Assembly: GCA_027021705.1 (NCBI GenBank) | Contig: JALUTT010000170.1 | Coordinates: 2,429 to 66,428 of the forward strand | Origin: Anaerolineae bacterium | Lineage (GTDB): Bacteria; Chloroflexota; Anaerolineae; S140-20 | DNA: 64,000 bases | Direction of reading: 5' to 3' | In this document: piece after piece, positions 18,653 to 62,782 of the stretch | How the letters are laid out: each line of letters begins with the position of its first letter | Position numbering within the stretch: the first letter of the stretch is position 1 | Position numbers and translations under genes: made by a program | The notes under the pieces: generated by a model | Databases searched by the model: none | What the model was told of the DNA's origin: nothing | What the model saw: only the letters and a program-made list of their open reading frames with translations

Positions 18653-18653
18653 C

Positions 18654-19722: not shown

Positions 19723-19761
19723 GGTTCCCTCCTGGGGTACGTGTTGCGTGGGACGTGTGGG

Positions 19762-21317: not shown

Positions 21318-21347
21318 GCTGGATGACGGAGCTTTGCCGACGGGCGG

Positions 21348-23887: not shown

Positions 23888-24065
23888 AGGCTATTCCCTT
23901 TCCTTGATGGCAAGCACGAATCCGATTTGCTTCTGGGGTCCCCTCAATGCTCAGGCTGGTGGCAGAAATGGGATGCCCTTGGTGCGAGACCTGCCAAGCC
24001 GGCATTGAGGTCAACGGAGGTTCGCTCCAAGAGGGGCTGCCTTTTCCGAATGGCCTCCTCCGGGC

Positions 24066-24651: not shown

Positions 24652-24773
24652 GCGTATTCCGTATTCCGTATTTCGTGTTTCGCATTTCGTGCTTCGTATG
24701 CCGTCCCGCCCTTCACGCTTCCTGGGCTCGTTTGGCGTTTCACGTCTCACAGGCCGCGTGCTGCGGGGGGCGC

Positions 24774-25337: not shown

Positions 25338-25341
25338 CGCC

Positions 25342-25839: not shown

Positions 25840-25886
25840 TGGGGTTACCTCCTCCAGAGGTCGGAGCCTCCGGTGATGCGCCCCTT

Positions 25887-27881: not shown

Positions 27882-27926
27882 TGGATCCTTCTCCTTAAGA
27901 TGTTGTCCCCCACAGCCTTCCCCGTC

Positions 27927-28451
27927 CTACCCTTTACTCTGGGAAGGTATATCTTCTTCGTAACGGGTCGGGCACTTCAGGAGCAGTTCGTCGGCGTAGA
28001 AGATCCCGTCTTCGCCGAGCTTGCCGGTGACGATCGCCTGGGCCTCGTGTTGCATCAAGTCCGGCTTGGGACCGTGATAGCGGACGGTGAGCCGAGGGAC
28101 CTGAGGATCGCTGACTGCCTGGCGGAGGACAACGGCCAACCCACCGGCGGCTTCGATCTCCTTGTTGGAACCCGGGACGTGCGCGATGGTGAACTCCAGA
28201 TCCAGGTTCTGGGCATCGTACACGATGGTGTCCCCGATGACCGCACCGGAGACGCGCACCTGGCGGCCCTGAAGCTCATCACGCCGGGCCAGGAGTTCTT
28301 CGACGGTGAGGAAGTACTCGGCGTGGGCCCCGAAGCTGCTGACGATGAGGTAGGCCACCGCTGCTAGGATGATCAGACCACCCACGTAGAATTTGGCCCG
28401 GGATCTGCCGGCGGTCTGGAGTTCAGTCTTGGGCACAGTCGCTTCCTGCAT
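27927..28451 (-). CDS. ccmE: haem chaperone CcmE, variant with CxxxY haem-binding motif
   Basis: N-terminal TM anchor plus an OB-fold core (VRVSGAV.GDTIVYD). The C-terminal KCPTRY replaces the canonical HxxxY. Confidence 0.7.
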   Translation of the reverse strand: MQEATVPKTELQTAGRSRAKFYVGGLIILAAVAYLIVSSFGAHAEYFLTVEELLARRDELQGRQVRVSGAVIGDTIVYDAQNLDLEFTIAHVPGSNKEIEAAGGLAVVLRQAVSDPQVPRLTVRYHGPKPDLMQHEAQAIVTGKLGEDGIFYADELLLKCPTRYEEDIPSQSKG

Positions 28452-37726: not shown

Positions 37727-37852
37727 GAGAGTAACTGTTCACCCTCCCGCAGGTTGGGCGCGTTTCCGATGAGAAACCGTGCTTCCAATAGCCCATCGGG
37801 GCTGAAAGCGCCCTCGACCGGTGACCTGCGGGAGGGTGGGCTGAATAGATAC
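37727..37852. repeat. copy 3 of MITE/REP-like element (inverted orientation)
   Basis: Reverse complement of copies 1 and 2. Intergenic between the PP2C phosphatase gene and the response regulator gene. Confidence 0.85.
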
Positions 37853-37863
37853 CGGGGGGAAAG

Positions 37864-38241
37864 GTGATGCCTTACCGAATCCTGGTCATAGACGATGAAC
37901 CCCATATGGCCCGTCTGGCCTCCTACGTGCTCCAGACGGCCGGCTACGAGGTGCTCACCGCCGAGGACGGCAGGGATGGGCTCAAGAAACTGGCTCAGTT
38001 TGAGCCCGATCTGGTGATCTGCGACATCACGATGCCGGAGATGGATGGCTTTGAAGTCGTCAGCACCTTGCGGGCCGATCCCCGCTGGCACCACCTGCCC
38101 GTGATCATGCTGACAGCCCGAGGGCAGGAGCAGGACATGCAGCGGGCCGAGGAGGTGGGGGCCAACAGCTACCTCACCAAACCCTTCAGTTCCCGCCAGC
38201 TTCTGGGCGAAGTACAGCGCTACCTCAACGGGATCGGCTGA
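37864..38241 (+). CDS. single-domain response regulator (CheY-like receiver)
   Basis: ILVIDDE, phospho-acceptor D in DLVICDITMPEMDG, and the conserved T/K positions. Confidence 0.8.
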   Translation: MMPYRILVIDDEPHMARLASYVLQTAGYEVLTAEDGRDGLKKLAQFEPDLVICDITMPEMDGFEVVSTLRADPRWHHLPVIMLTARGQEQDMQRAEEVGANSYLTKPFSSRQLLGEVQRYLNGIG

Positions 38242-38383
38242 GCGTCGCTTGGGGAGCGGCCAGGCTGTCCAGGGCGGCCCATCTGGATCGCCGACCCGGT
38301 CCGACCGCCTGCCCCTACAGCCGGGAACCGTCCAGACCGCCGTCGGTAAACGGTCCGTTTGCCTTACCTTGGAGGGGGGACCT

Positions 38384-41300: not shown

Positions 41301-41536
41301 GCCTCACGCCGGAGGAGCAGGCCCGGCTGTTCACCCCCTTCACCCGTCTCGACCAACTACGTGTCACCGGGCACGGCTTGGGGCTTTCCATCGTGCGGCG
41401 CATCGTGGAGAAGCTGGGCGGAGAGGTAGGGGTCACCAGCGAGGTTGGACAGGGGAGTACCTTCAGCTTTACGCTGGTGGGAGTTCAGGATTGTCCGGTC
41501 TCGATTGTGCCGGTGGATAGGCAGCGAGCTTGGTAG
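38384..41536 (+). CDS. sensor histidine kinase: 7TM N-terminal domain, PAS, GAF x2, PAS, HisKA, HATPase_c
   Basis: About seven TM helices at the N-terminus. H-box FAHTVAHDLKAPL. N, G1 and G2 boxes in the C-terminus. Start taken at MGWQYPP (ATG at 38384). Confidence 0.8.
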   Translation: MGWQYPPHLFPLVIAAVTSASLALLSWRRRAVPGAWAFLGLMGAVAGWSLGYALELASADEAAKLFWAKAQYLGIVLVPAAWLVFALQYTGRGRGVTRRFLALLSIEPLITLALVWTNESHGLIWRELRLITWGNFSLLESVHGAAFWIHTAYSYLLLLLGTILLFRTFVCSPTLYRRQAGAILVGMLVPWAQNALYLSGLNPFFPYLDLTPFAFTVTGLAVAWALFRFRLFDIVPVAREAVIESMEEGLIVLDRQNRIVDINPAAARVIGCTISEAIGRPANQVLVKVRDLVQRYWDVMEAHTEITMEWEGRSCYYDLRISPLRDERGRITGRVVLLRNITKRKRAEEALRAREQFLALLNEITRAALEMPDLPTMTQVLADRLGELFHADGCYITLWDEEREVPIPAAAYGEWRERYRSVTVMPDETTVTGSVLAAGRPLVIEDVFDSPYLSRRIAEIFPDRSLLALPLIARERKLGAALIAFNEIHHFTPEEIGRGEQVAQQIALALDKALLLEEVQAQWREAETLRQAAAAITETLSLDERLERILVQLERVVPYDSASVQLLREGFLEIVGGRGFPDPEAVIGLKFPIPGDNPNTIVVLERRPVILRDARSAHLPFRQPPHDHIRSWLGVPLIVHDQVIGILAVDGVEPNRFDDRDIRLVIPFANQVAVAIENARLFEETRRLKVFNENIVQSVAEAILIEDARGVLTFANPAAEEMLGYTREELIGLHWTALTSEEEREKVRRERARHALGATGRYETVLVNKEGRRIPVIVSARPFFEEGRFVGVLSALTDITERKQAEIEREKLIEDLDAFAHTVAHDLKAPLSLIVGFAEVLLEDYTAMPAEEREEFLRTIVQVGRKMSNIVDELLLLASVRSAEVEMAPLDMAAIVAEAQQRLTYLIAERQAQIILPEHWPVALGYGPWVEEVWVNYLSNAIKYGGQPPRIELGATVQPDGMVRFWVRDNGPGLTPEEQARLFTPFTRLDQLRVTGHGLGLSIVRRIVEKLGGEVGVTSEVGQGSTFSFTLVGVQDCPVSIVPVDRQRAW

Positions 41537-41549
41537 CGAGGAGGGAAAG

Positions 41550-41936
41550 ATGGCCTACATTCTCTCGATGGAAGACGAACCTCACCTCCAGCGGCTCATC
41601 CAGTACACCTTGCAGACGGCGGGGCACCGCGTCGTCGTAGCCGAAGACGGCGAGCAAGGGCTCGCCCTGGTGCGGGAGCAGCCGCCCGACCTGATCCTGC
41701 TGGACCTGCTGATGCCCAAGGTGGATGGCATAACCGTCCTGAAGGTGCTGAAGGCGGATGCCTCGACTGCCCACATCCCCATCCTCATCGTCACCGCCAG
41801 CGCCCAGCGACACGAGGCCGAGCGTGCCATCACCCTGGGGGCCGATGGCTACTTGATCAAACCCTTTCGGGTCACCGATCTGGTTGAGCAAGTTAACCAT
41901 CTGCTGATGGCCATAGGAAGGTTCAGGGAACGATGA
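41550..41936 (+). CDS. single-domain response regulator (receiver)
   Basis: MAYILSMEDEPH..., DLILLDLLMPKVDG. Good spacing after the histidine kinase gene. Confidence 0.8.
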   Translation: MAYILSMEDEPHLQRLIQYTLQTAGHRVVVAEDGEQGLALVREQPPDLILLDLLMPKVDGITVLKVLKADASTAHIPILIVTASAQRHEAERAITLGADGYLIKPFRVTDLVEQVNHLLMAIGRFRER

Positions 41937-44900
41937 CGGTCCAAGAGCGCGTCTACGCCATCGAGGACCTGACCCAGGATCTCACCCAGGAGAAGGTCCG
42001 CTGGTTGATCAACGCCCACTGGGTCGCGATTACCACGGTGGTGGTGGTCACGCTGGTAGCTGGCTGGCTGCAGACCAACCCCCAGATCTGGCTGACTGGT
42101 AGTGTCGCGGCCTTCATCGCCTATCTGGGTAACCTGCTGTTCGCCTTCGTCTACCGCCGGATACCGGAGCGCTTCCTTCCCCGCGCCATCTTCGCCATCC
42201 TGGTGCTGGATGCGACGGTGATGACGGCAGGGCTCCACTACAGCGGCGGCGTGATGAGCCCCTACGTCTACCTCTACATCCTGCCCATCCTGATGGGCGG
42301 CGTCCTCCTCTCCAGCCGGGCCGCCTGGCTGTTGGCCCTCTTGGAAGGAGGACAGATCGCCCTCCTGACGGTGATCGAGCAGTGGGGGCTCTGGTCTCCG
42401 ACCAGCACGCTGGGAGGCCATCACGTCGGCCAGAGTTCGCCGATCCAGGCAGCCGAGGCGATCTTGGCCGTCTGGGGGATGTGCGGGCTCACCGCCTTCA
42501 TCTACACCTACACAGCGAACCGGTTGCATCGTCAGGAGCACCATCTGCTGGGAGCCAACCGGGCGCTCCGAGCTCGTAGCCGGGAGCTGGAAGCGCTCAA
42601 CCAGGTCTCCGACGCCATTCGGGACAGCCTAGATCCCCACGAGGTGATGACGCGGGCCCTACAGGCTGCCCTGGGGGTCACCGGTCTGGATGCCGGCTGG
42701 TTCATCCTGGGGGATGGTCACGAGGTGTGGGAGTTGCCCGTGGCCCATGGGCTGACCGAGCAGATGCTCCAGGCGGAGCGTGACACCCCTCCCACCTCGG
42801 ACTGCATCTGCGTGCGGGCCTTCGATACCGGTCAGATCCAGCACGCCAGCGAGATGCTGGCCTGTCCCCGCCTCGCCTGGGATACCATCGCTGGCAGCGG
42901 CCTACGCCGCCACATCAGTGTCCCCCTCAAGGCCGGCGACCAGGTGCTGGGCGTCCTCAACCTGGCTTCCTCAGACCACCGGCGGGAATTCAGCCCTGAG
43001 GAACTGCGCATGCTGGAGATGATGGGCACCCAGATCGGCGCGGCTCTGACCAATGCCCGTCTCTTCCAGGAGACTCAGCATCGGGCCGAGGAACTGGAGC
43101 GCCTCTATCGGGTTGCTGTGGCGGCCAGCCGGTCCTTGGACCTAGAGACCGTTCTGGAGAGCGCGTTGGACGAGGCGCTCTCCATCCCGGTCCTCGAGAG
43201 CCGGGGAGGGATCTTCCTGCTGGATGAGGACAAGGGGGTGCTCCGACTCACTGCCCACCGGGGTCTCCCTTCCGACTTCGTTGCTGGCGAACAGGAGGTC
43301 CCCCTCGGGGAGTGCCTCTGCGGCCTGGTAGCCTTGACCAAGCAGTCTTGCATCACCAGGGGCGATGATCCCCGCCACACCCGAGTCTGCCCCTTCTCCT
43401 CCTGGAGCCACGTCAGCGTCCCCATCCTCAGCCACAACCGGCTCATCGGCGTCCTCTTCGTCCACGTCCGGCCTGGCTGCACCGTAACGGCCCAGGAGCA
43501 GCGCCTGCTGGAGACCCTTGGGCAGCAGATCGGCCTGGCTGTGGTCAACGCCCGCCTCTACGCGGCGGAGCAGGAACGGCGACGGGTTGCCGAGACGCTG
43601 CGGCAGATGGCCGGGTTGGTCAGTTCCAGCCTCGCCCTGGAGGAGGTCCTGGACCTCGCCCTCCTCGCCCTGCGTCAGATCGTCCCTTACGCCACTGCAT
43701 CCATCATGCTGCGCGAGGATGATGCGATGGTGGTGACGGCGGTGCGGGGCTTCGAGGAACCGGAAAGGGTGCTGGGACGGCGTGTCTCTCTGCAGGAAGG
43801 GACCCTCTCAGCCGACATCGTGCGCTACAAGGAGCCCATCCTCCTCGACGACGTGCGCCAGGACCCCCGCTGGCTCCCCTGGGAGGAGACGGCCCACGTC
43901 CGTGCCTGGTTGGGCGTCCCCCTCATCGTCCAGGACGAGGTGATCGGCCAGCTCTCGCTCGATGGCGATCGTCCAGGGCTGTTCCGGGAGAAACACCTGG
44001 AGGCCCTGACCATCTTCGCCCAGCAGGTGGCCAATGCCATCGAGAACGCCCGGCTCTACGAGGAGGTGCGGACGAAGGAGAAGGAACTGGCCTATCAGAT
44101 TGACCACGCCTCCGATCCCATCTTCAACCTGGATGCCGAGGGGCGGTTCACCCTCTTCAACCGGGCTGCCGAAGCCCTCTCCGGCTACTGGCGGGAGGAG
44201 ATCCTGGGGCGGCCCTACACCGACCTCTTCTGCCCCGATTACCACGATGGGGTGGCCGACCTGCTCGCCAAAACCGGCGGCGAGGGCTCCCGCCCCTACG
44301 AGGTCGAGATCCTCACCAAGGACGGGGAGCGGGTGCCGGTGGAGATCCGCCTGGCTCCCCTCTACCGGGATGGACAAGTGATCGGAGCCCAGGTCATCGC
44401 CCGGGACATCCGAGAGCGGAAGCAGTTGGAGCAGATGCGGGAAGACTTCATTGCCAGCGTCTCCCATGATCTGCGCACGCCGCTGGCCTCTATCACCGGC
44501 TTCACCGAGGTGCTGCTCTCCGAGGCTCCGGGACCCTTGACCGAGGTGCAGCAGGAGTTCCTGGACATCATCGCTGAGAGCGGTGAGCGACTGCTCAAAC
44601 TGGTCAACCAGATCCTGGATGTCTCCAAGCTGGACAGCGGACGCTTCGAACTCCACCCGGCTCCCGTGGACCTGCGGCTGATGGTGAAGAGCCTGGTAGA
44701 TCAGATCCGCCCCTTGGCGACGAAGAAGCAGATCGCCCTGGAGGTGGAGATCGCTTCGGACCTGCCCGTCATCACGGCGGACCCGGACCGGATGGAACGG
44801 GTGCTGGCGAACCTGCTCAGCAACGCCGTCAAATTCACGCCTGAGGGGGGCTCGGTGAGGGTGCGCCTGATGCGCAACGGGGAGGCGATCCGCTGTGAGG

Positions 44901-45133
44901 TTTCGGACACCGGTATCGGCATCCCTTCCGAGGACCTCCCCCATCTCTTTGAGCGCTTCCGTCGCGCCAGCAATGCCCAGAAGAGACGGGTCAAGGGGGC
45001 CGGTCTGGGGCTCTACATCAGCAAGGCCATCGTCGAGGCTCACGGGGGGGAGATCGGCGTGGAAAGCCGGCTGGGGGAGGGAACGACCTTCTGGTTCACC
45101 CTGCCCATCGGCGGGGATGGGGAAAACCGCTAG
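41933..45133 (+). CDS. sensor histidine kinase: polytopic N-terminal membrane domain, GAF x3, PAS, HisKA, HATPase_c
   Basis: H-box SVSHDLRTPL. HATPase motifs (GAGLGLYISKAIVEAHGG). Confidence 0.8.
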   Translation: MTVQERVYAIEDLTQDLTQEKVRWLINAHWVAITTVVVVTLVAGWLQTNPQIWLTGSVAAFIAYLGNLLFAFVYRRIPERFLPRAIFAILVLDATVMTAGLHYSGGVMSPYVYLYILPILMGGVLLSSRAAWLLALLEGGQIALLTVIEQWGLWSPTSTLGGHHVGQSSPIQAAEAILAVWGMCGLTAFIYTYTANRLHRQEHHLLGANRALRARSRELEALNQVSDAIRDSLDPHEVMTRALQAALGVTGLDAGWFILGDGHEVWELPVAHGLTEQMLQAERDTPPTSDCICVRAFDTGQIQHASEMLACPRLAWDTIAGSGLRRHISVPLKAGDQVLGVLNLASSDHRREFSPEELRMLEMMGTQIGAALTNARLFQETQHRAEELERLYRVAVAASRSLDLETVLESALDEALSIPVLESRGGIFLLDEDKGVLRLTAHRGLPSDFVAGEQEVPLGECLCGLVALTKQSCITRGDDPRHTRVCPFSSWSHVSVPILSHNRLIGVLFVHVRPGCTVTAQEQRLLETLGQQIGLAVVNARLYAAEQERRRVAETLRQMAGLVSSSLALEEVLDLALLALRQIVPYATASIMLREDDAMVVTAVRGFEEPERVLGRRVSLQEGTLSADIVRYKEPILLDDVRQDPRWLPWEETAHVRAWLGVPLIVQDEVIGQLSLDGDRPGLFREKHLEALTIFAQQVANAIENARLYEEVRTKEKELAYQIDHASDPIFNLDAEGRFTLFNRAAEALSGYWREEILGRPYTDLFCPDYHDGVADLLAKTGGEGSRPYEVEILTKDGERVPVEIRLAPLYRDGQVIGAQVIARDIRERKQLEQMREDFIASVSHDLRTPLASITGFTEVLLSEAPGPLTEVQQEFLDIIAESGERLLKLVNQILDVSKLDSGRFELHPAPVDLRLMVKSLVDQIRPLATKKQIALEVEIASDLPVITADPDRMERVLANLLSNAVKFTPEGGSVRVRLMRNGEAIRCEVSDTGIGIPSEDLPHLFERFRRASNAQKRRVKGAGLGLYISKAIVEAHGGEIGVESRLGEGTTFWFTLPIGGDGENR

Positions 45134-45239
45134 GGTGAAAGCTGCCCGATAGCGACTGGGGGTGATGGTTTTCCGGCGAAGCGGTGTATAATCCCATGCA
45201 AGGGATCCCTGCGCACCGATAGCCATTCGGATTGGACCT

Positions 45240-45818
45240 GTGGACGAAACGGACCTGATTGCGCGTGCTGTCCAGGGGGACGAGGAGGCCCTGGCGGCTC
45301 TCTACAACCGTCACGCCCCAGCCCTCTACCGGCTGGCCTACGGCCTCTTGGGAGATGCGGAGGATGCCGAGGAGGTGGTCCAGGACGCCCTCGCCTACGC
45401 CCTGCGCCGGCTGGACCACTACGATCCCACTCGATCCGCCTTCACGACCTGGCTGCACACCATCACCGTCAGTCGCTGTCGGAACAAGCGCCGTCGCCGC
45501 TGGTTGCCCAGCCTGCGGCTCGCCGACTGGCTGGAGAGGGGCCGAGACCTGCCTGACCCCGATGCCGACCTGGAGGCCGTGGTAGTGGCCGACGAGGAGG
45601 CCCGCCAAGTCTGGGAAGCGGTGCAGCAACTCAGCCCCGTCGTGCGGGAAGTGGTCGTCCTCCGCTACTGGGGCGGTCACACCATCCCGGAGATCGCCCG
45701 CATCGTCGGCTGCCCGCCGGCCACCGCCCAATCCCGGCTGCGGCTGGCTCACGAGCAACTGCGCCGCCACCTGCACCCCCTTTCGACCTCTTGGAGCCCA
45801 GCGGAGGAGGCGGGATGA
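45240..45818 (+). CDS. ECF-type RNA polymerase sigma factor
   Basis: Sigma-70 region 2 (DAEDAEEVVQDALAYALRRLDHYD) and region 4 HTH (HTIPEIARIVGCPPATAQSRL). Start may be a GTG. Confidence 0.8.
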   Translation: MDETDLIARAVQGDEEALAALYNRHAPALYRLAYGLLGDAEDAEEVVQDALAYALRRLDHYDPTRSAFTTWLHTITVSRCRNKRRRRWLPSLRLADWLERGRDLPDPDADLEAVVVADEEARQVWEAVQQLSPVVREVVVLRYWGGHTIPEIARIVGCPPATAQSRLRLAHEQLRRHLHPLSTSWSPAEEAG

Positions 45819-48562
45819 AGAAGCACCTCACGGCCCAGCAACTCAGTGACCTGGCGGAGGGATTGGTCTCCCCTGATCACCGGGTCACCCTGGAGGCCCA
45901 CCTGGCTTCCTGCTCCCACTGTCGGGAGGCCCTGGCCGCCCACCAGGCCCTGGTCGAGCAGCTGCGCCGGGGGCTTCCCGCCTATCTGGAGCGGACTCCC
46001 TTGCCTCCCACCCTGCGCTGGGACACGGTGCGCCATCAGCTCCTGAAAGCTGCCTCCCCCAGGTTCGAACTTCAGAGGAGGATCGTGATGTGGAGACGAA
46101 TGCGCGCGGCTGTCGGTAGCCTCGTTGCCTTAACCTTGTTGCTGGGGATGATCCTCGTCCTGAGCGCCATCTTCCGCCCGATGAGCACCACCCTCGCACC
46201 CGGCGAGGAGGGCGCCCCTCCAGGAGCGGTGCTCGAAATGAGCGGCGTCCTGCCCTCTAGTGCGGGGCTCTTCGGTCCTCGATCCGTCACCTTCACAGTG
46301 CGGGCTGCACTGCCGACGGTGCCCGAGAGCGTCCCCCTCTACCGGATGGAGCCCGTCCTGCGGGAGATCACCCCCGACGTACTCCGCCTCTGGGCCGGTC
46401 GCCTGGGGATGGGACCGGTGCAGATCTACCGGGGCGATCTCCCAATGGCCGGGCCCAACAGCCTCACCGGCTTCGACGAAAGGTGGAGATCCCTCACCCT
46501 GGGCGCTGAGGGGACCTTGGTCTTCCAGCGACGCGGTTTCCGGTCGAGTGAGATGACGGGGCTGGCGACTCCTCCCCAAGAAGGGGTGGAAGAGTCCGAA
46601 GCCAGGAGGGTGGCGACCGCCTTCATCACGCCGTTGATCCCCTACTTGGTCACCGTGGAGGGGACGGACTCTCCCCCGTCCGTGGGCTTCTCCCTCACCC
46701 CGCGGGAGGATCTCTCTCCCGCCGACACAGGCGTGTGGGCCTATCAGGTCGAGATCACCTTGGATGGCGTCCCCTTCGCCTCTGAAGCCCCCGGAAACAT
46801 CGTGCTGGTGGGGGCGGATGGCGAGGTGATCACCGCCTTCCTCACCCCGGTTCGCCTCACCCCGGCCGGCAAGCAGGTCGCCCTGCGGCCCATCGAGGAG
46901 ACGCTGCAGGCTTTCCTGCAGGGCGATGCCTCACTGCTGGATGGCAGTAGTTGGCGCGAGAAGCTTCCCTCCGACGCCATGCCTCGTTTCTTCCAACGCC
47001 CCCTCTCCTTCCAAGAGGGAGAGAGGGTCGCCGTGAGCGGATGGGTCCAGCGGCTCTCAGGGGTGGAGGGTGCGCCAGACCTGGTGTTGCTCCACACTGT
47101 CACCAATGGGGGGACTTTCGTCCTGGAGGGAGGGGATCCAGCGCTTTCGTCGGAGAGCGGTCCGGTCCGGGTGGAGGGGACGGTGAGCCGTACCGACGTC
47201 CCTGACGTGTGGCGACTCCGGGTGGAGCGGGTGATGCCGATGGCACCCGAGGAGAAGGGCAGTTGGGATGGGGTGGTGGAGCGGCGGGAAGACGGCCTCT
47301 GGTTGAAGACCTTGGAGGGGCAGCAGTTCCGCCTGCCCGATCCACCGGAAGGGCTGCCCGACGGTGCCCGGGTGTCGGTGATGGGGATGCCGGCCCTGGA
47401 TGACCCCCAGCGTCTGGAGTGGAGCCTCATTGTCCTCCTGCCCGAGGCGGAACTTCCGCCAAGGCGGGCGGTGCAGGTGGAAGCGCCCCCTCCCCCGCCT
47501 CCGCCGTCCCTGCCCACGCCGGCCCCCCTTCCGACGGCCATGGCTACGGAGACCCTCGAAGGGCCGGTGGTCAGCGCTCCTGTCTCCCCCACCGCGCCGC
47601 TGGCGCCATCGCCGGTGGCAGTCCAATCCAGCGAGGTCGTCGTCGTGCCGGTGGTTCCCCTGGCCCCCGGAGCCCCCTCTCCGGAGCCTCCCCCGTGGTG
47701 GGAGCACCAGCCGGGCGACGTGGTGACAGTGGTGGGGCTCCTATCTGTGAACGGCTTTCGCGAACCCGACGGTACCATCCAGGCCTGGGCCAACCTGACC
47801 ATCGAAGGTCCCACGGAGGATGTTCCGAACTTCTTCCTGCCCCTGGCGGGCGAGGACCTGGAGGCCCTAGCCCCTTGGGATGGGCTACACGTGCGGGTGC
47901 GGGGACAAATCCTCACCGAGGAGGAGGCCACGGAGAAGTTGGGCGAGCCCATCCCCGGCTCCGCTGGTCAAGTCCTCTGGATCGAGGAGGCCGAGCCGGC
48001 GTGGCCGGAGGAGACGAAGGACGTCTACACCGGCCCGCTGCGCATCGAGGAGGTGGAGGGCCGAGAGGTGGCCCTGCTGGAGGACACGCTCACTGGCCAG
48101 ACCTTTGCCCTGGCCGGCGGGGAAGGCGACTTGGACCTCTACCGCCGCTACGCAGGGCTGGAGGAGCCCATCGCCATCATCGGCATCCGGGTCCCTCAAG
48201 AGCAGGTAGGAGGCTACCCGGTCCTGCGGATGGCGCGGCTGGGCACCGGCGAGGGGGCGGTGGAGGACCTGCGGCGGCGGTTGACCGATCCATTCGGTCC
48301 ACCCATACCGGCGCCGTCCGGCCCCACCGAGGTGATCATCGAAGAAGTGAAGCTGGCCTACATAGTGCAGAGATTTCATCCAGATCCCTCCAGGGAAGGG
48401 GAACCGGTGGCCTTGCTCACCAAGCCCTTCTACCTCCTCATTGGCCGCTCCCCTGATGGACGGTATCGGGTGACGGTCCGGCTGCGGGCGACGGAGGAGG
48501 CCATTCCTTCGGAAACGCCATCGGTCTTCTTCCTGACGCCCACCACGGTCCCTGGGCCGTAG
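45815..48562 (+). CDS. anti-sigma factor (zf-HC2 N-terminus, single TM, very large extracytoplasmic domain, Pro-rich linker)
   Basis: HLASCSHCREALAAH zinc-finger-like anti-sigma motif. TM AVGSLVALTLLLGMILVLSAIF. ATG overlaps the sigma factor stop (ATGA). Confidence 0.65.
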   Translation: MKKHLTAQQLSDLAEGLVSPDHRVTLEAHLASCSHCREALAAHQALVEQLRRGLPAYLERTPLPPTLRWDTVRHQLLKAASPRFELQRRIVMWRRMRAAVGSLVALTLLLGMILVLSAIFRPMSTTLAPGEEGAPPGAVLEMSGVLPSSAGLFGPRSVTFTVRAALPTVPESVPLYRMEPVLREITPDVLRLWAGRLGMGPVQIYRGDLPMAGPNSLTGFDERWRSLTLGAEGTLVFQRRGFRSSEMTGLATPPQEGVEESEARRVATAFITPLIPYLVTVEGTDSPPSVGFSLTPREDLSPADTGVWAYQVEITLDGVPFASEAPGNIVLVGADGEVITAFLTPVRLTPAGKQVALRPIEETLQAFLQGDASLLDGSSWREKLPSDAMPRFFQRPLSFQEGERVAVSGWVQRLSGVEGAPDLVLLHTVTNGGTFVLEGGDPALSSESGPVRVEGTVSRTDVPDVWRLRVERVMPMAPEEKGSWDGVVERREDGLWLKTLEGQQFRLPDPPEGLPDGARVSVMGMPALDDPQRLEWSLIVLLPEAELPPRRAVQVEAPPPPPPPSLPTPAPLPTAMATETLEGPVVSAPVSPTAPLAPSPVAVQSSEVVVVPVVPLAPGAPSPEPPPWWEHQPGDVVTVVGLLSVNGFREPDGTIQAWANLTIEGPTEDVPNFFLPLAGEDLEALAPWDGLHVRVRGQILTEEEATEKLGEPIPGSAGQVLWIEEAEPAWPEETKDVYTGPLRIEEVEGREVALLEDTLTGQTFALAGGEGDLDLYRRYAGLEEPIAIIGIRVPQEQVGGYPVLRMARLGTGEGAVEDLRRRLTDPFGPPIPAPSGPTEVIIEEVKLAYIVQRFHPDPSREGEPVALLTKPFYLLIGRSPDGRYRVTVRLRATEEAIPSETPSVFFLTPTTVPGP

Positions 48563-53683: not shown

Positions 53684-54049
53684 GACCAGAGCCCCGCGCC
53701 CTGGTATTTCCCCCCACGCTCCCCTTCCCATTTCCCCCAACGCACTCTCTCCGAGATCCCCACAACTTAGGATATGTTGCCATAGGGCTCAGTGCTCAAG
53801 CAAGACCCAGATTCCCGGGGTCTCCGCGCGGCGATCCTCCCTTTGGGATGCCCCCGACGAGGCGAGCACGTTGCCTCTCAGAGAGCCCTGTGTTCCGCCA
53901 GCCATAGCGTGGCCTGTGGAGAGGTGGTGAGCGGTCGGGCGGTTGGCGAATGGGGTGGAAACCCACCAATCTTCCCTTGTCTCCCCTGTAGATACGATGG
54001 ATATGGGGGTAGACCCCCACTGGATAATGGGTAATTCTACCCACAAAAA

Positions 54050-54086
54050 GTGACATCCATCACAATGCAGTGGTGACATCCCTCAC
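54050..54086 (+). promoter_or_regulatory. two tandem CRP/FNR-family boxes (GTGACATCCATCAC and GTGACATCCCTCAC) at class-II position relative to a TATACT -10
   Basis: GTGA-N6-TCAC at 54050-54063 and 54073-54086. tatact at 54110-54115. No -35 at proper spacing. Confidence 0.55.
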
Positions 54087-54167
54087 TATCCCTTGGTCCG
54101 GCTATCCTCTATACTGGGCCTTGAGGCGCCACCCCAGGCCCGTTACCTGTAGCAGGAGGAGCGTGTT

Positions 54168-55412
54168 ATGAGACGTCAGGGGCTGTTCATCCTTGGGGCG
54201 TTGTTGTTGATGGCGCTCCTGGTCGTAGCCTGTGCCGGCCCTCAGGGACCCGAGGGACCGCCCGGTCCGGCAGGACCGCCGGGGCCGGAAGGGCCTCAGG
54301 GTCCTCCAGGCCCCCAAGGCCCTCCAGGGCCTCAAGGACCGCCAGGGCCACAGGGACCACCAGGAGAGGCCGCCGCTGCCGAATACGTCGGGAGCGACGT
54401 TTGCGCTTCGTGCCATGAGGAGATTTATGATGTCTTTATAAAGTCGGGCCACGCCTGGAAGCTGAATCCGGTCGTGGACGGCAAGCCCCCGGAGTACCCC
54501 TTCACCGAGGTCCCAGAGCCGCCGGAAGGCTACACCTGGGATGACATCGCTTACGTCATCGGGGGCTACAACTGGAAAGCCCGGTTTATTGACAAAAACG
54601 GTTACATCATCACCGGCCCCGACGAGAATGCCACGACCCAGTACAACTTCGCCAATCCCGAGGTGGGCAAGGAGGCCGGCTGGGTGGCCTACCATCCCGG
54701 CCAGGAGAAGCCCTACAATTGCGGGCCCTGCCACACCACCGGTTACAAGCCGGAGGGCCACCAGGACGGCCTGGAAGGGATCGTCGGCACCTGGGCGGAG
54801 CCGGGCATCAAGTGCGAGCGGTGCCATGGCCCAGGCAGCCTGCACGTTGCCAACCCCTATACCGTGCGCATGGTCGTGGACCGCGATTCCGAGCAGTGTG
54901 GTGAATGCCATCTGCGGGGCTCGCCCGAAGCGGTCAACGCCAAAGGTGGCTTCATCCAGCACCACGAGCAATACGAGGAGCTCTTCCAGAGCAAGCATAT
55001 CACCCTGCGGTGCGTGATCTGCCACGACCCCCACGCCGGAGTGGTGCAACTGCGCAAAGCGGGCGAGCAGACCACACGCACCCAGTGTGAGAACTGTCAC
55101 TTCCAGGAGGCCAAGTACCAGAACTCCGAGGTACACAAGGCCGTGGGGGTGACCTGTATTGACTGCCATATGCCGCGCATCGTCAAGAGTGCCTGGGGAG
55201 ACGCCGAGAAGTTCACGGGGGACATCCGCACCCATATGATGGCCATTGACCCGGATCAGATCGAGCAGTTCACCGAAGATGGCAAGACGGCGCTGTCGCA
55301 GATCGGGCTGAACTTCGCCTGCCGCCATTGCCACGTCGAAGGGGGGAAGGCGACCCCGAAGACCGACGATGAACTGCGCGAGAGGGCAACAGGCTATCAC
55401 GCCCGGCCTTAG
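54168..55412 (+). CDS. octahaem c-type cytochrome lipoprotein with N-terminal collagen-like (Gly-Pro-X)15 tether
   Basis: Lipobox LLVVAC. 15 consecutive G-P-X triplets. Eight CxxCH motifs (CASCH, CGPCH, CERCH, CGECH, CVICH, CENCH, CIDCH, CRHCH). Confidence 0.8.
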
Positions 55413-55526
55413 ACCGACCGATCCGGATCGTTGCCAAGAGCACGTCTGCGGGCCGGGGACTGCCTCCCGGCCCGCATTCCCATCTGGGCTCGCCGTCCAG
55501 CAGCGCAGGATAGTGGGTGGATAACA

Positions 55527-56639
55527 ATGAAGCGGTTTGCCGTGCTCCCAGGTCTGGTGGGGCTGGTTCTGGTGAGCCTCGCCCTCGTAGCCGCCCCCAC
55601 AGCGGCTCAGCCGGCCCGGCCCACCCCGTCGGTCCCGAATGTGGGTGATGAGACCTGCCTGGCCTGTCACGACACACCGGGGTTGCAGATCACGCTCCCC
55701 TCGGGTGAGCCCCTCTACCTGACCGTGGACCGGGTGATCTACAAGACCTCGACCCACGGGCGGCTGGGCTATGCCTGCGTCCAGTGCCACACGGATATTG
55801 GCGAGTTCCCTCATCCGCCCCTACAGGTGACCAGCCGGCGGGAATTCACGTTGAAGCTGTACCGGTCCTGTGCTCGGTGCCACGAGGACAAGTACGAGGC
55901 CACCCTGGACAGCGTTCACCAGGCTGCCCTGGCTGCAGGCCACCCGGAGGCTGCCGTCTGCACCGACTGTCACGGGGCCCACAACATCGGGCCACCGGAC
56001 AAACCGCGCAGCCACATCTCCCGAACCTGCCGCCGTTGCCATTCCCAGATCTATGACCTGTATGAGAAGAGCGTCCACGGCGCGGCGCTGATTGACGAAG
56101 GGAACCCTGATGTCCCCTCTTGCACCGACTGTCACGGGGTGCACAGCGTCGAAGGGCCCTCCACCAGCCCGTTTCGCCTCTTCTCACCACAGATCTGTGC
56201 CCGCTGCCACGCCGATCCGAAGCTGATGGGGCGCTATGGCATCAGTACCGACGTCTTCGACACCTACGTCGCCGACTTCCACGGCACCACCGTCATCCTC
56301 TTCGAGGCCATTGCCCCGGATCAGGAGACCAACAAGCCGGTCTGCATTGACTGTCATGGCGTGCACGACATCCAGACGACGGACGATCCGGAGAGCCGGG
56401 TCATTAAGGAAAACCTGCTTGCCACCTGCCGGAAGTGCCATCCTGATGCCACGGCCAACTTCCCTACCGCCTGGCTCAGCCACTACCGGCCCAGTCCCGA
56501 GCACGCACCGCTGGTCTACTTCGTCAACCTGTTCTACGAGATCCTGATCCCCACGGTGATCGGGGCAATGGTGATCTTCAACGCTACCGACATCTACCGA
56601 CGGGTTGTCTGCCGCCTTCGGGAGCGCCGCCATGGGTGA
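55527..56639 (+). CDS. nonahaem c-type cytochrome with signal peptide and C-terminal TM anchor
   Basis: Nine CxxCH motifs. Signal MKRFAVLPGLVGLVLVSLALVAAP. C-terminal hydrophobic helix ILIPTVIGAMVIF. Confidence 0.75.
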   Translation: MKRFAVLPGLVGLVLVSLALVAAPTAAQPARPTPSVPNVGDETCLACHDTPGLQITLPSGEPLYLTVDRVIYKTSTHGRLGYACVQCHTDIGEFPHPPLQVTSRREFTLKLYRSCARCHEDKYEATLDSVHQAALAAGHPEAAVCTDCHGAHNIGPPDKPRSHISRTCRRCHSQIYDLYEKSVHGAALIDEGNPDVPSCTDCHGVHSVEGPSTSPFRLFSPQICARCHADPKLMGRYGISTDVFDTYVADFHGTTVILFEAIAPDQETNKPVCIDCHGVHDIQTTDDPESRVIKENLLATCRKCHPDATANFPTAWLSHYRPSPEHAPLVYFVNLFYEILIPTVIGAMVIFNATDIYRRVVCRLRERRHG

Positions 56640-57786
56640 GGTTCGTAAGTACCTGCGTTTCCCCCTCTCCTACCGCCTCGAGCACGGGCTGCTTATGCTC
56701 AGCTTCACGGTCCTGGCCATCACCGGCCTGGTCCAGAAGTACGCCGGCACCGGCCTTGCCGAAGGGGTCGTGGCCTTGATGGGGGGCATCGAGCGCGTGC
56801 GCATCACGCATCGGGTCGCCGCCATCGTCCTGATGATCGAGACGGTCTACCACGTGGGGGCTGTGGGCTATCGCCTCTTCGTACACCGCGCCCGCCCCAC
56901 AATCCTCCTGACGTTGGACGATGGGCGCATCGCGCTCCAAATGCTGCTGTACAACCTAGGCCTGCGGAAGGAACGCCCCCTTCAAGGTCGCTACACAGTA
57001 GAAGAGAAGATCGAGTACTGGGCCGTGGTCTGGGGAACGCTGATTATGGCGGTCACAGGGTTTATGATGTGGAACCCCATCGCCACCACACGCCTCTTGC
57101 CTGGGGAGTTCGTCCCGGCGGCCAAGGCGGCCCACGGCAACGAAGCCCTTCTGGCCGTGCTGGCCATCCTCGTCTGGCACGTCTACCACGTGCACCTCCG
57201 CCACTTCAACAAGAGCATCTTCACCGGCTACCTCACCGAAGAGGAGATGCGGGAAGAGCATCCCCTGGAGCTGACCACGGTGGAGACGAGGGCCGCTGTG
57301 GAGAGCCCCAGGGTACTGGCCCGGAGGCGCTGGGCCTTCTTCTCCATCTACGGCACGCTGGCAGCCGCCATGTTGGTGGGCATCTACCTCTTCGTCACTT
57401 TCGAGGAGACGGCCATCACGACGGTACCGCCGCCGGAACAGGTGGTGATCTACGCACCGCTGACGCCGACGCCTCTGCCGACGCCGTTGCCTACCCCCAC
57501 GCCGCTGCCTCAAGTGGCCGCCTCCTGGAAGGGGGGGGTGGCCATGCTGCTCCAGGAGCGGTGTGGCAACTGCCACAACAGCACGGCCAGGTTGGGTGGC
57601 CTGGACCTCAGCAGCTACGAAGGAGTCCTGGTGGGCGGTGCCAGCGGCCCGGTCATCGTTCCGGGTGATCCCGCAGCCAGCCTGCTGGTGGTCCGGCAGG
57701 CGGCGGGGGACCATCCTGGCCAGCTCAGTGGTGAAGAGCTGGCCCTGATCCGCCAGTGGATTCAGGCGGGTGCACCAGAACAGTGA
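56632..57786 (+). CDS. membrane b-type cytochrome (cytochrome b561 / hydrogenase-cytb-like 4-5 TM) fused to C-terminal PSCyt1-type c-haem domain
   Basis: Conserved His in TM helices (HRVAAIV..., HGNEALLAV..WHVYHVH). C-terminal CGNCH...GGLDLSSYEGVLVGGASGPVIVPGDPAASLLV. 8-bp overlap with the upstream gene. Confidence 0.65.
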   Translation: MGEVRKYLRFPLSYRLEHGLLMLSFTVLAITGLVQKYAGTGLAEGVVALMGGIERVRITHRVAAIVLMIETVYHVGAVGYRLFVHRARPTILLTLDDGRIALQMLLYNLGLRKERPLQGRYTVEEKIEYWAVVWGTLIMAVTGFMMWNPIATTRLLPGEFVPAAKAAHGNEALLAVLAILVWHVYHVHLRHFNKSIFTGYLTEEEMREEHPLELTTVETRAAVESPRVLARRRWAFFSIYGTLAAAMLVGIYLFVTFEETAITTVPPPEQVVIYAPLTPTPLPTPLPTPTPLPQVAASWKGGVAMLLQERCGNCHNSTARLGGLDLSSYEGVLVGGASGPVIVPGDPAASLLVVRQAAGDHPGQLSGEELALIRQWIQAGAPEQ

Positions 57787-57822
57787 GGGCGATGGGGAGT
57801 CGAGGACGAGAGGAGAAGGACG

Positions 57823-59520
57823 ATGGGTCGTATCCGGCAGGTGTTACGCAGCCTCTTCTTCCCCCCGCCAGGGACCCGGCTATGGCGGTGGCTATTGCCC
57901 TACGCCATCCTGGGCGTGATGACCCTGGTGGTGCTGATCCTCGGCGCGTATAGCTGGGAGTACACCAACTCTCCGGAGTTCTGTGGCACAGCCTGCCACA
58001 CCATGCCTCCCGAGTACACCGCCTACCTGGTCTCACCCCACGCCCGGGTGAAGTGCGTCGAGTGCCACATCGGACGCAGCTTCATCGCCACCCAGATTTC
58101 ACGCAAGGCTGGGGACATTGAGCACATCGTCTCCTTGGCTTTCCGGCGCTACGAGTTCCCCATCTACGTCAGGACGATGCGGCCGGCGCGGGAGAGCTGC
58201 GAACGCTGTCACTACCCGGAGAAGTTCTCCGACGACAGCCTGCGCGAGATCAAGCGCTTCCGCGACGACCGGGACAACACGCCCTACAGCATCTACCTCA
58301 CGCTGAAGACGGGCGGTGGCAGCAAGCGCCAAGGACTGGGAAGGGGCATCCACTGGCACATCGAGAACCCCGTCTACTACCTGGCCCTGGACCCCGATGA
58401 GCAGGTGATCCCCTACGTGCGGGTGGTGGGCGACGATGGGTCCGTCACCGAGTATGTGGATGTCGAGGCCGACATCAACCCGGCGGAGATAGACCCGGCC
58501 GACCTGAAGGAGATGGACTGCATCACTTGTCACAACCGCATCACCCACCTGATCCGCCCGCCTGACGATATTGTAGACCAACTGATGGCGCGCCGAGTGA
58601 TCTCGCCGGAGATCCCGGAGATCCACCGCAAGGCCGTCGAGGCGCTCAGCACCCGTTACGACTCCATCGAGATAGCGATGAACGCCATTGCTGGCCTGAT
58701 GGGCTACTATCAGACCTACTACCCGGATTTCTACGCGGCCAACCGGGATCAGATTGAGGCGGCCATTGCGGCCCTGCAGGAGGCCTACCGACAGAGCGTC
58801 TTCCCGGAGCAGAAGGCCGATTGGACCACCCACGTCAACGAGATTGGTCACAAGTACTCACCCGGCTGTTTCCGTTGCCACGACGGCAAGCACTTGAACG
58901 CGCAACAAGAGGCCATCCGGCTGGAGTGCAACCTCTGTCACTCGATCCCCGTGGTGGTCGGCCCCAACGACTTCGTCGCCAGGATCGAGATCAGTCGGGG
59001 GCCGGAGCCTAAGTCCCACCTGCACGCCAACTGGATTGGCCTGCACCGCGACATCTTCGACGACACCTGCGCCAACTGCCATACCACCGAGGACCCCGGA
59101 GGGACCAGCAACGTCTCCTTCTGCTCCAACAGCGCCTGTCACGGTACGGTGTGGGAGTACGCTGGCCTGGATGCGCCGGAACTGCGCAAGATCCTGGCCC
59201 AGCAGATCCCCCAGATTGCCCCGACCCCGACCCCCATCCCCGAAGGCATCGCCCTTACCTACGCCGATACCATCGGGCCGCTGCTCCGGGACCGCTGTGG
59301 CACCTGCCACGGGGAGAAGGGGATCCAGGGGCTCAACCTGACCACCTACGAAGGGCTGCTGAAGGGTGGGGCCGGCGGGCCAGCCATCGTGCCCGGCGAC
59401 CCGGACAAGAGCTTGCTCGTTCAGGAGCAGCGGGGGGAGCAACCCCACTTCGGTCAGCTGACCGACCAAGAGCTGGAATTGGTCATCCAATGGATCGAGG
59501 CTGGTGCACCGAAGGACTAA
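57823..59520 (+). CDS. NapC/NirT/NrfH-like membrane-anchored multihaem cytochrome c with C-terminal PSCyt1 domain
   Basis: N-terminal TM plus CGTACH / CVECH tetrahaem quinol-dehydrogenase-like arrangement. Further CxxCH motifs (CERCH, CITCH, CFRCH, CNLCH, CANCH). C-terminal CGTCHGEKGIQGLNLTTYEGLLKGGAGGPAIVPGDPDKSLLV. Confidence 0.7.
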   Translation: MGRIRQVLRSLFFPPPGTRLWRWLLPYAILGVMTLVVLILGAYSWEYTNSPEFCGTACHTMPPEYTAYLVSPHARVKCVECHIGRSFIATQISRKAGDIEHIVSLAFRRYEFPIYVRTMRPARESCERCHYPEKFSDDSLREIKRFRDDRDNTPYSIYLTLKTGGGSKRQGLGRGIHWHIENPVYYLALDPDEQVIPYVRVVGDDGSVTEYVDVEADINPAEIDPADLKEMDCITCHNRITHLIRPPDDIVDQLMARRVISPEIPEIHRKAVEALSTRYDSIEIAMNAIAGLMGYYQTYYPDFYAANRDQIEAAIAALQEAYRQSVFPEQKADWTTHVNEIGHKYSPGCFRCHDGKHLNAQQEAIRLECNLCHSIPVVVGPNDFVARIEISRGPEPKSHLHANWIGLHRDIFDDTCANCHTTEDPGGTSNVSFCSNSACHGTVWEYAGLDAPELRKILAQQIPQIAPTPTPIPEGIALTYADTIGPLLRDRCGTCHGEKGIQGLNLTTYEGLLKGGAGGPAIVPGDPDKSLLVQEQRGEQPHFGQLTDQELELVIQWIEAGAPKD

Positions 59521-61885: not shown

Positions 61886-62782
61886 ATGGGCAACAACGGA
61901 CGCGGAAGAGGCTCAATGGAACTGCGGGGGTTGATGCCCACGCCAGAGGAGCGTTGGGCCTTGATGCGCAGTTACTTGGAGCTGGGGGAGAGCGACCTGG
62001 AGGCTATGGCTGCAACGGTGGAGCCTCTCTTTCGACGCGGGCCCGACCTGGTGAAGGAGAACTATGACTACCTGGCCCGCTTCCCGGAGACGGCGGCGGT
62101 GCTGGGCTGGGAGGACGGCATTGACGAAGAGCACCTGGAGGAACGACGTCGCTTCTTCACCATCTGGCTGGCTCGGTTGCTGGGGCTGGACCTGAGCGAC
62201 GATATGGCCCGTTACATGTTCTACGCCGGTAAGGTCCACGCCGGCCACGGCCCCCGCCGCATCCACGTCCCCGACATCTTCGTCACCGGGGCCGTCAGCC
62301 GGGTGCAGGCCGACTTCGCCGCCACCATCCAGGCCCACATCTCCGACGCCGGTCTGATCGCCCGAGCCCTGGCCGGCTGGAACAAAGTGCTGACCATGCA
62401 CCTGGACATGATGCTGATGGGCTACCAAGTGGCGCGGGCGGTGGATGAAGGCCCCAACCCGGTGCGGGTTACCCTCTTCGGACGGTTGCGCTCCCTCGTC
62501 GGCCGCCAGGAGATGGTCATCCGCACCGGCCCGAACGCCCGGGTGGCCGACGTGCTACGCAAGTTCTTCAACTACTACCCGGAGGCCCGCCACGAGGCCC
62601 TAGAGGCCCATCCCGAGCCCCTGGAGGAAGGAGAGTCGCTCTGGCTGGAGCTGACGGAAGTCTACGTGCCCCGCAAGTCGTGGCGGGTGCTGCGCAACGG
62701 GCGCGACCTGAACTACAACGGCGGTTTTGAGGCCCCCGTCGAGGCGGGAGATGAAGTCGCCCTCTTCCCACCAGGACGCTGA
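61886..62782 (+). CDS. protoglobin-domain protein fused to a C-terminal MoaD/ThiS-like beta-grasp domain
   Basis: N-terminal roughly 190 aa match the protoglobin pattern (ENYDYLARFPETAAVLGWEDG...ERRRRFFTIWL...YMFYAGKVHAGHG). C-terminal VRVTLFGRLR...VLRNGRDL...AGDEVALFPPGR is MoaD-like but lacks the terminal GG. Confidence 0.5.
   Translation: MGNNGRGRGSMELRGLMPTPEERWALMRSYLELGESDLEAMAATVEPLFRRGPDLVKENYDYLARFPETAAVLGWEDGIDEEHLEERRRFFTIWLARLLGLDLSDDMARYMFYAGKVHAGHGPRRIHVPDIFVTGAVSRVQADFAATIQAHISDAGLIARALAGWNKVLTMHLDMMLMGYQVARAVDEGPNPVRVTLFGRLRSLVGRQEMVIRTGPNARVADVLRKFFNYYPEARHEALEAHPEPLEEGESLWLELTEVYVPRKSWRVLRNGRDLNYNGGFEAPVEAGDEVALFPPGR

Follow-up and report, generated by a model that had tools for sequence, protein, structure and literature searches.

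The CRP/FNR family of regulators includes proteins that act at the PrfA box (tTAACAnnTGTtAa) and at the HcpR-type sites GTAAC-N4-GTTAC. The sites of Rex (TTGTGAA-N4-TTCACAA), which controls respiratory and hem genes, overlap the pattern GTGA-N6-TCAC. Palindromes are also bound by DevR, with the half-site GGGACT, in which the G and C of GAC are essential; these sites always come as two or more tandem boxes in helical phase, e.g., with centres at -42.5 and -63.5, are bound cooperatively and have the proximal box by the -35 region (PMC3177182). Here we describe a pair of tandem palindromic boxes upstream of a four-gene multihaem cytochrome operon in an Anaerolineae bacterium (contig JALUTT010000170.1), within a stretch of 64,000 nucleotides that is referred to below as the window and in which all positions are numbered. 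The region at 54050-54115 probably constitutes the core of an activator-dependent promoter of this operon and belongs to a lineage-wide regulon, a reading that is drawn from sequence comparison and to which we assign a probability of about 0.8.

The distal box, GTGACATCCATCAC (54050-54063, no strand assigned), and the proximal box, GTGACATCCCTCAC (54073-54086), are separated by a 9-nt spacer, aatgcagtg (54064-54072), so that they lie 23 bp apart from centre to centre; they are identical at 13 of 14 bases, and both are exact instances of GTGA-N6-TCAC. The letters around the distal core are aGTGACATCCATCACa, in which the left half-site matches GTGACA perfectly and the right one is weakened (CATCAC vs TGTCAC). 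Exactly 23 nt after the proximal box, there is a -10 hexamer TATACT on the forward strand (54110-54115). Within the intervening spacer (54087-54109, forward strand), the usual place of the -35 element is taken by tatccc, and because it matches TTGACA at only two of six positions, we consider the promoter to have no -35 element. A sigma-70 promoter scanner reported no -35/-10 pair in this region, consistent with such a promoter. The transcription start is predicted on the forward strand at about 54122 (54120-54124) from a conserved A located 7 nt past the hexamer in the alignment of 76 promoters described below, which would place the box centres at -65.5 and -42.5 and yield a leader of about 46 nt that includes the ribosome-binding site AGGAGG (54154-54159, forward strand). 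An Rfam scan of the intergenic region gave sub-threshold chance matches only and thus no evidence for a riboswitch or another leader RNA. The original prediction, made from the letters of the window alone, had proposed the two boxes and TATACT, their 23-bp spacing, the absence of a -35 element, a class-II geometry with the proximal centre at about -42 and multihaem cytochromes downstream; the boxes, the hexamer and the spacing are all present, open reading frames and Pfam domains identify the cytochromes, both the spacing and the lack of a -35 recur at the 76 promoters, and the geometry holds as far as the predicted start is correct.

We evaluated whether such an arrangement may arise by chance. 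The pattern GTGA-N6-TCAC occurs three times in the window, compared with 0.81 expected occurrences, and since 6 of 100 shuffled sequences reach the same number, this count alone is weak evidence. The significant part is the pairing and not the motif count: two exact boxes at a distance of 10-40 bp were obtained in none of 3000 shuffles, and a pair at 23-bp spacing scored with the position weight matrix (PWM) described below in none of 60. The third match (55087-55100) was rejected as a regulatory site, as it corresponds to the codons of a CXXCH haem motif, C-E-N-C-H. Recurrent intragenic matches in relatives, at about +630 and +910 in many loci, were rejected likewise (e.g., TGTGAAGAATGTCAT encodes C-E-E-C-H). 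It should be noted that the CXXCH codons (TGT GAR AAY TGT CAY) mimic the regulatory palindrome and thereby produce false motif matches inside cytochrome genes.

The window belongs to a metagenome contig (k141_298277 of ENA ERZ27262676). For the comparative analysis, 70 loci with relatives of the first cytochrome of the operon were fetched and their gene starts were set from the lipoprotein signal peptide. These relatives belong to uncultured Anaerolineae, Ardenticatenaceae, Promineifilaceae and Caldilineaceae. A PWM iterated on the 450-nt upstream regions of the orthologous operons (66 loci) converged on a 14-bp palindrome, RTGACA-WW-TGTCAY, which scores above 95% of the null upstream of 37 of the 66 operons, all from Anaerolineae-type Chloroflexota. 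Approximately 15-20 of these 37 loci share the geometry of the window, with exactly 23 nt separating the box from TATAAT or TATACT, and many orthologous loci, again like the window, have a weaker site 23 bp further upstream. Across all loci, eight site pairs are spaced by 23 bp and at most two by any other distance between 10 and 60 bp. With this matrix, the distal box of the window scores 14.7 bits (the 99th percentile of the null being 12.7) and the proximal box 10.0 bits; the latter occupies the register of the strong conserved box of the orthologous operons, which stands exactly 23 nt before TATAAT/TATACT. A functionless direct repeat produced by chance would agree with the insignificant motif count and with the degeneracy of the window boxes relative to the consensus, but it would leave the result of the 3000 shuffles without explanation, and the spacing, the distance to the -10 hexamer and the location before an orthologous gene all match the conserved architecture. 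The comparative data thus strongly disfavour this explanation, which we regard as highly improbable.

The full layout, i.e., a box, 9 nt, a second box, 23 nt and a TATAAT-like hexamer with no -35 element, recurs at 76 distinct promoters, which precede cytochromes, hemA, an operon encoding Rrf2, SCO1 and cytochrome oxidase, an operon headed by a regulator with HTH_17 and PocR domains (HTH_17-PocR) and phage genes. In related genomes, the motif also occurs upstream of other genes, such as hemA, Rrf2-SCO1, HTH_17-PocR and further cytochromes. Examples of the full layout at genes unrelated to the cytochrome operon are hemA and a Wzz-like kinase (both in locus L023), the Rrf2-SCO1 operon (L049) and two further cytochromes (L040). 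The tandem boxes at the Rrf2-cox operon were present in all four independently fetched genomes, as well as in L049 and L153. We further scanned a metagenome collection for RTGAYANNTRTCAY-N9-RTGAYANNTRTCAY, which gave at least 120 loci with 152 matches listed; among these listed matches, 55 have a TATAAT-like hexamer exactly 23 nt beyond one end, while a few per cent are expected by chance. The consensus of the 76 promoters reads aaaGTGACAaaTGTCAtat.aaa.a.aTGACATTTGTCACTa-(~21 nt without information)-TATAAT-t.....A. The stretch of the -35 element holds no information save T(A) right after the box, with the best -35 match at mostly two to three of six positions, and a conserved A is found 7 nt after the -10 hexamer; taken as +1, this A gives centres of -42.5 and -65.5 for the boxes, and the class-II-like geometry thus appears to be conserved in the lineage. 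In L060, -10 hexamers occur 23 nt from both ends of one tandem pair located between divergent operons, as expected for a bidirectional activator site. L060 and L031 also share a variant, GGGACA-NN-TGTCCY, in which both half-sites of both boxes are changed symmetrically; this natural specificity variant could identify the regulator by covariation.

The same pattern was found in 13 viral contigs from IMG/VR (L210-L222), some of which carry two to four pairs. Phage-like metagenome contigs (L074, L078, L088, L114 and L162), together with the viral contigs, have one to four tandem-box promoters before small early-type genes. In the examined regions of the viral contigs, we detected no homologue of the HTH_17-PocR regulator, of the CRP homologue discussed below or of BlaI, and the single GerE-type match lies in L216 at 6.5 kb from the site. 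Phages thus appear to borrow a host factor through tandem-box promoters.

These observations suggest the following mechanism. Two dimers of one DNA-binding regulator would bind the two 14-bp palindromes, and the distance of 23 bp would place them on roughly the same face of the helix, where binding is probably cooperative. The proximal dimer, with its centre at about -42.5, would replace the missing -35 element and recruit RNA polymerase to TATACT, which corresponds to class-II-type activation. The same promoter design would define a lineage-wide regulon in Anaerolineae-type Chloroflexota and would be copied by phages. The predicted regulon comprises multihaem cytochromes, hemA, the Rrf2-SCO1-cytochrome c oxidase operon, the operon of HTH_17-PocR with SQR-like, DsrE and DsrC proteins, and ArsR-type regulators, and thus looks like a control circuit for haem and the respiratory chain.

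Several points weigh against this model. The window boxes score below the family consensus, with 14.7 and 10.0 bits vs about 21 bits for the best sites, and the right half-sites of both deviate at positions 9-10. The start positions in all these uncultured organisms are predictions from the alignment. The closest relatives of the four-gene operon (L001/L009/L053 type) use a promoter TTGACA-18-TAAAAT that is overlapped by another palindrome, motif B, and have a single upstream box. No candidate regulator gene is located within the 64-kb window. In addition, the unrelated BlaI/BlaR1 repressor system uses the same DNA pattern in 12 of the metagenome contigs listed, so the pattern alone does not identify the binding protein. 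Finally, a repressor bound at -42.5 would also be compatible with the sequence alone.

The boxes may accordingly be read as operators of a repressor of the Rex, BlaI/CopY, ArsR or Rrf2 type. ArsR and Rrf2 genes do occur downstream of tandem boxes, the Rex site overlaps GTGA-N6-TCAC, and in the 12 contigs the BlaI-family repressor uses ATGACAnnTGTCAT-N9-ATGACAnnTGTCAT, located approximately 12 nt before the start codon of its gene. However, the fixed 23-nt distance to the -10 hexamer and the systematic lack of a -35 element at 76 promoters fit an activator. The flanking TT/AA of Rex sites are not conserved, and position 5 is C rather than A; no BlaI homologue is encoded in the window or in any Chloroflexota locus, and the BlaI loci differ both in geometry and in background (GC of about 0.6, a BlaR1 partner). 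We therefore hold repression through these boxes to be quite unlikely. The contigs that encode a BlaI/MecI-family repressor with a BlaR1-like sensor are L083, L092, L094, L097, L103, L118, L119, L127, L137, L145, L149 and L174.

Given activation as the favoured reading, the question arises which protein occupies the boxes. The first candidate is a class II activator of the CRP/FNR family, either the cAMP-type CRP homologue of these Chloroflexota or a paralogue, as had been suggested in the original prediction. The motif type agrees with this assignment, since both window boxes are exact GTGA-N6-TCAC sites and the family consensus keeps TGA-N6-TCA; the 6-2-6 form of the box matches the PrfA box and the HcpR-type sites, and the predicted centre at -42.5 without a -35 element is as expected. 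A gene with cNMP_binding and HTH_Crp_2 domains is divergent from the tandem-box promoter of the Rrf2-cox operon in four of four genomes. Its product retains the cyclic-nucleotide phosphate-binding cassette (FGELAviDGlpRSAtA) and the R-E pair of CRP in the recognition helix, and its family has 915 close homologues, distributed over Ardenticatenaceae, Leptofilum, Anaerolineales and allied groups; L012 comes from one of the genomes that encode a member. The location of this CRP homologue beside a tandem-box promoter is the first positive support for the CRP/FNR assignment. The homologue is encoded in a conserved operon with a DUF3307 protein that has its own class-II box (L205-L209), and in four genomes this operon is divergent from an Rrf2-SCO1-AhpC/SCO1-COX2-CtaB-COX1 operon.

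On the other hand, the promoter of the CRP homologue itself has, in five of five cases, a single box of another subtype, GTGA[A/G]A-WW-TTTCAY, followed by 22 nt and TATGGT; the box reads GTGAGATTTTTCAC. This other-subtype box is also present in L209, where there is no tandem box nearby. Although the fit to TGTGA-N6-TCACA claimed for the window boxes stands in that both contain exact GTGA-N6-TCAC, the consensus RTGACA-WW-TGTCAY of the family has its inner CA..TG as conserved as its outer TGA..TCA and is therefore nearer to the PrfA box or the Dev box of DevR; at its position 5, the PWM shows C, with A rare and G essentially never found. Two dimers 23 bp apart are not the usual CRP/FNR arrangement. 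Moreover, no CRP/FNR gene adjoins the approximately 130 tandem sites or the 66 cytochrome loci, and none is present in the 64-kb window: such genes were absent within 10 kb of the 66 orthologous operons, phmmer searches of all open reading frames of the 70 loci with E. coli CRP and FNR gave no match, and a lineage-specific CRP profile had no hits near the cytochrome loci or in the window. We regard this family as a plausible but still tentative binder.

The second candidate is the HTH_17-PocR protein, a Chloroflexota-specific one-component regulator that would respond to a redox or sulfur signal by activating its own operon and the respiratory regulon. It has about 252 amino acids, with an N-terminal HTH_17 domain (excisionase/MerR/BldC-like) followed by a PocR (GAF/PAS-like) sensor domain, and 1263 close homologues in Chloroflexota. 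Among the matches listed, its gene is the commonest one downstream of perfect tandem boxes, accounting for 10 of 120 motif-selected metagenome loci, which include four sequence-divergent types (L122-like, L157, L159/L095 and L167). Six genomes were fetched by similarity of the protein, one of them being the assembly of L023, and in all six the gene is preceded by the strongest tandem boxes in the canonical geometry; in L191, L202 and L204, a cytochrome operon with tandem boxes is located 4-5 kb away from the gene. Four cysteines (C80, C113, C129 and C155) are invariant. In the predicted structural model, a linker joins a winged helix-turn-helix to a GAF-like domain, which is followed by a long helix at the C-terminus; this would be compatible with a dimer, and such a dimer may bind a palindrome. 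A PDB sequence search and Foldseek gave weak BldC and IclR-like matches only. The operon of the regulator (L191-L204) encodes HTH_17-PocR, a Pyr_redox_2 flavoprotein of 410 amino acids (SQR/NDH2-like), a 225-residue DUF1641-like protein and DsrC-like and DsrE-like proteins, a content that suggests a link to sulfide or persulfide.

The association of the HTH_17-PocR gene with the boxes is not, however, specific to a binder. As a control, the Rrf2 operon was fetched in the same way and showed tandem boxes in four of four genomes, so conserved perfect sites mark core members of the regulon and not necessarily the binder. Approximately 30% of the genes downstream of tandem boxes encode regulators (ArsR, Rrf2 and HTH_17), suggesting a master regulator above them. 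In addition, NTGCAN is repeated four to five times in the HTH_17-PocR promoters at intervals of exactly 9 bp, and two further copies stand between the proximal box and the -10 hexamer (3.6+1.5 repeats per promoter vs 0.30+0.06 elsewhere). BldC is the nearest characterized HTH_17 protein, and since HTH_17 domains of the BldC type occupy 9-bp direct repeats in a head-to-tail manner (PMC5859096), these repeats would be the more natural operator of HTH_17-PocR. Assignment of the motif to HTH_17-PocR by autoregulation was favoured first and was downgraded after the Rrf2 control and the detection of the 9-bp TGCA repeats; we now consider it possible but doubtful. The NTGCAN-N3 repeats abut the distal box and keep the 9-bp phase over 54 bp in L191, L194, L197, L202, L203, L204, L108, L122, L128 and L133. 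They are essentially confined to HTH_17-PocR promoters, with one further motif-selected locus, L156, whose promoter sequence equals that of L191. It is similarly doubtful, yet conceivable, that HTH_17-PocR runs an undescribed master regulon of haem and respiration (extracellular-electron-transfer cytochromes, hemA and cytochrome c oxidase) as a new kind of class-II activator; if true, this protein with its four-cysteine sensor would be an analogue of FNR built from unrelated domains, and phages would exploit its promoters. In the literature, we found no description of the tandem-box motif or of an HTH_17-PocR regulator in Chloroflexi.

The third candidate is a response regulator of the NarL/GerE type with a HisKA_3 kinase, a system similar to DosRS or HrrSA that would sense haem, oxygen or redox state and bind the boxes as Dev-box-like sites. 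The tandem Dev box of DevR/DosR is the closest known architecture: in the Dev-box register the consensus reads G[T/G]GACA-WW-TGTC[A/C]C, and GGGACA..TGTCC variants occur in L031 and L060. A HisKA_3 kinase and a GerE regulator are encoded within 10 kb of 22 of the 66 cytochrome loci, often divergently from the operon. The tandem pair of L060 serves the operon as well as the genes of the kinase and the regulator, and L194 encodes, divergently from a tandem-box promoter, a kinase-regulator pair whose helix is DosR-like (EKTVRNHVS); a HisKA_3/GerE pair is also linked in L202. Against this candidate, a GerE regulator was found nearby in just two of the 120 motif-selected loci among the matches listed, and none is encoded in the window. 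The GerE regulators most often linked carry a FixJ-like helix and show better co-occurrence with motif B, and two loci with DosR-like regulators (L025 and L034) lack tandem boxes. We thus consider a NarL/DosR-like binder unlikely. Direct assignment of the motif to the linked two-component system was rejected, as the correlation is modest (the motif is present in 16 of 22 loci with the system vs 20 of 44 without it), and an XRE-cupin regulator encoded upstream of nine loci showed no correlation with the motif. Overall, among the possible binders, CRP/FNR may be ranked first, HTH_17-PocR is a doubtful second, some other protein has about the same standing as the latter, and the NarL/DosR-like response regulator comes last.

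Motif B, aTTGGGt-N6-aCCCAAt, was found upstream of the operons in L001, L009, L035, L047, L053, L059, L060 and L031. The leaders of the closest relatives of the operon contain two to three copies, the first of which overlaps the TTGACA-18-TAAAAT promoter, and the copies occur mostly in loci with a divergent HisKA_3 kinase and FixJ-like GerE regulator. The window has a single motif B-like palindrome, TGGGTAATTCTACCCA (54028-54043), just upstream of the distal box, whose central hexamer is no longer similar to a -10 element. This copy is probably a site of another regulator or a decayed ancestral promoter or operator.

The cytochrome operon itself (54168-59520, forward strand) was delineated by open reading frames and Pfam domains, and its gene order recurs in related loci; all four genes are on the forward strand. 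The product of the first gene (54168-55412, with ATG at 54168) is a multihaem cytochrome of the lipoprotein type that has a collagen-like GPx repeat at its N-terminus as well as an MtrC-like domain. The second gene (55431-56639) encodes another multihaem cytochrome, the third (56605-57786) a membrane protein that resembles cytochrome b561 and bears a c-type haem domain, and the fourth (57823-59520) a NapC/NirT-like multihaem cytochrome. The N-terminal part of the first cytochrome (54168-54380) and of its orthologues carries an LxAC lipobox-like signal indicative of a lipoprotein, and its collagen-like (GPx)n segment varies in length and is conserved in about 65 relatives. Upstream of the operon, an ABC-2 transporter is encoded on the same strand and ends at 53683. 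At 2.4 kb downstream of the operon, an open reading frame (61886-62782) encodes an unusual fusion, according to Pfam, of a protoglobin with a C-terminal ThiS-like domain.

Elsewhere in the window, which has a G+C content of 65%, the protein encoded at 2693-6910 is of the STAND type and combines two adenylate/guanylate cyclase domains with AAA_16 and TPR repeats. It had been put forward as a source of the cAMP signal; the two cyclase domains are indeed there, but nothing connects the protein to the promoter, and a link between them is pure conjecture. The following open reading frame (6907-11010) encodes 1367 amino acids without a Pfam match. A System I cytochrome c maturation cluster on the minus strand (17068-28451) comprises CcmA, CcmB, CcmC, CcmE, CcmF and CcmH-like proteins, as well as DsbD-like and thioredoxin-like ones; it also includes an inserted gene for a DpnI-like PLD nuclease (20430-21317) and a gene for a dihaem cytochrome c (22049-23887). 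Finally, the region at 37849-48562 encodes two stand-alone receiver proteins, each preceding a GAF/PAS histidine kinase of very large size (38249-41536 and 41933-45133), followed by a possible extracytoplasmic function (ECF) sigma factor gene (45240-45818) and a zf-HC2 anti-sigma protein (45791-48562).

Sediments and wastewater harbour abundant, mostly uncultured bacteria of the Anaerolineae, Ardenticatenales and Caldilineales. The promoter code of a box, 9 nt, a box, 23 nt and a -10 hexamer with no -35 links multihaem cytochromes with haem synthesis, the assembly of cytochrome oxidase and several secondary regulators, and it allows regulon prediction directly from metagenomes. Combined with the three candidate regulators, it provides a short list for identification of the binder, and tandem-box promoters shared with phages could link phage contigs to their hosts. 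For the cytochrome operon of the window, it suggests dedicated positive control rather than constitutive expression, and for the control of extracellular electron transfer in these Chloroflexota it gives a concrete and testable entry point.

Compared with the described systems, the PocR-domain activators, Salmonella PocR and Eubacterium limosum MtaR, share with the HTH_17-PocR candidate the PocR sensor, and their positive autoregulation and two boxes upstream of the -35 region (PMC13602510) would have a counterpart in it. Unlike this candidate, they are AraC-type proteins with an N-terminal PocR and a C-terminal HTH domain, whereas the order is reversed here, with an HTH_17 domain and four invariant cysteines. 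The BlaI/MecI/CopY repressors have in common with the present sites the ACA-NN-TGT core and tandem dyads, and ATGACAnnTGTCAT occurs twice at 23 bp in the 12 BlaI-BlaR1 metagenome contigs; their operator, however, abuts the start codon of the regulator gene itself, and the organisms are other, GC-rich ones. The CI sites OR1/OR2 at the lambda PRM promoter and the lux boxes of LuxR resemble the present pair in having adjacent dyads about 23-24 bp apart and phage genomes with several copies, as well as, in line with the prediction made here, cooperative binding and an activating dimer at about -42 (the lux box at -42.5). Nevertheless, the sequences and protein families are unrelated, and in the regions examined the phage contigs described here lack homologues of the tested candidate families.

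The class II CRP/FNR promoters (E. coli CRP and FNR, Listeria PrfA) are similar in their xTGA-N6-TCAx sites, with the centre near -41.5 and an activator that replaces the -35 element, as predicted for the present promoters, and the PrfA box additionally shares the 6-2-6 form and the conserved ACA..TGT. They differ from the present sites, where conservation of the inner CA..TG equals that of the outer bases, position 1 holds G or A and two dimer sites are spaced by 23 bp, while the CRP homologue of the lineage appears to autoregulate via another box subtype. With respect to DevR/DosR of Mycobacterium tuberculosis, the spacing is 23 bp here vs 21 bp, the half-site is GTGACA vs GGGACT, and the GerE regulators linked to the present loci mostly have a different recognition helix. 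At the same time, both systems have a 6-2-6 palindromic core sharing G-GAC..GTC-C, a theme of redox and respiration, and tandem boxes of which one set can serve divergent promoters. In DevR, the tandem boxes are obligatory, the proximal one being centred at -42.5 next to or over the -35 region and the second some two helical turns further upstream, and weak promoters are activated cooperatively (PMC3177182), as would be expected of the present boxes.

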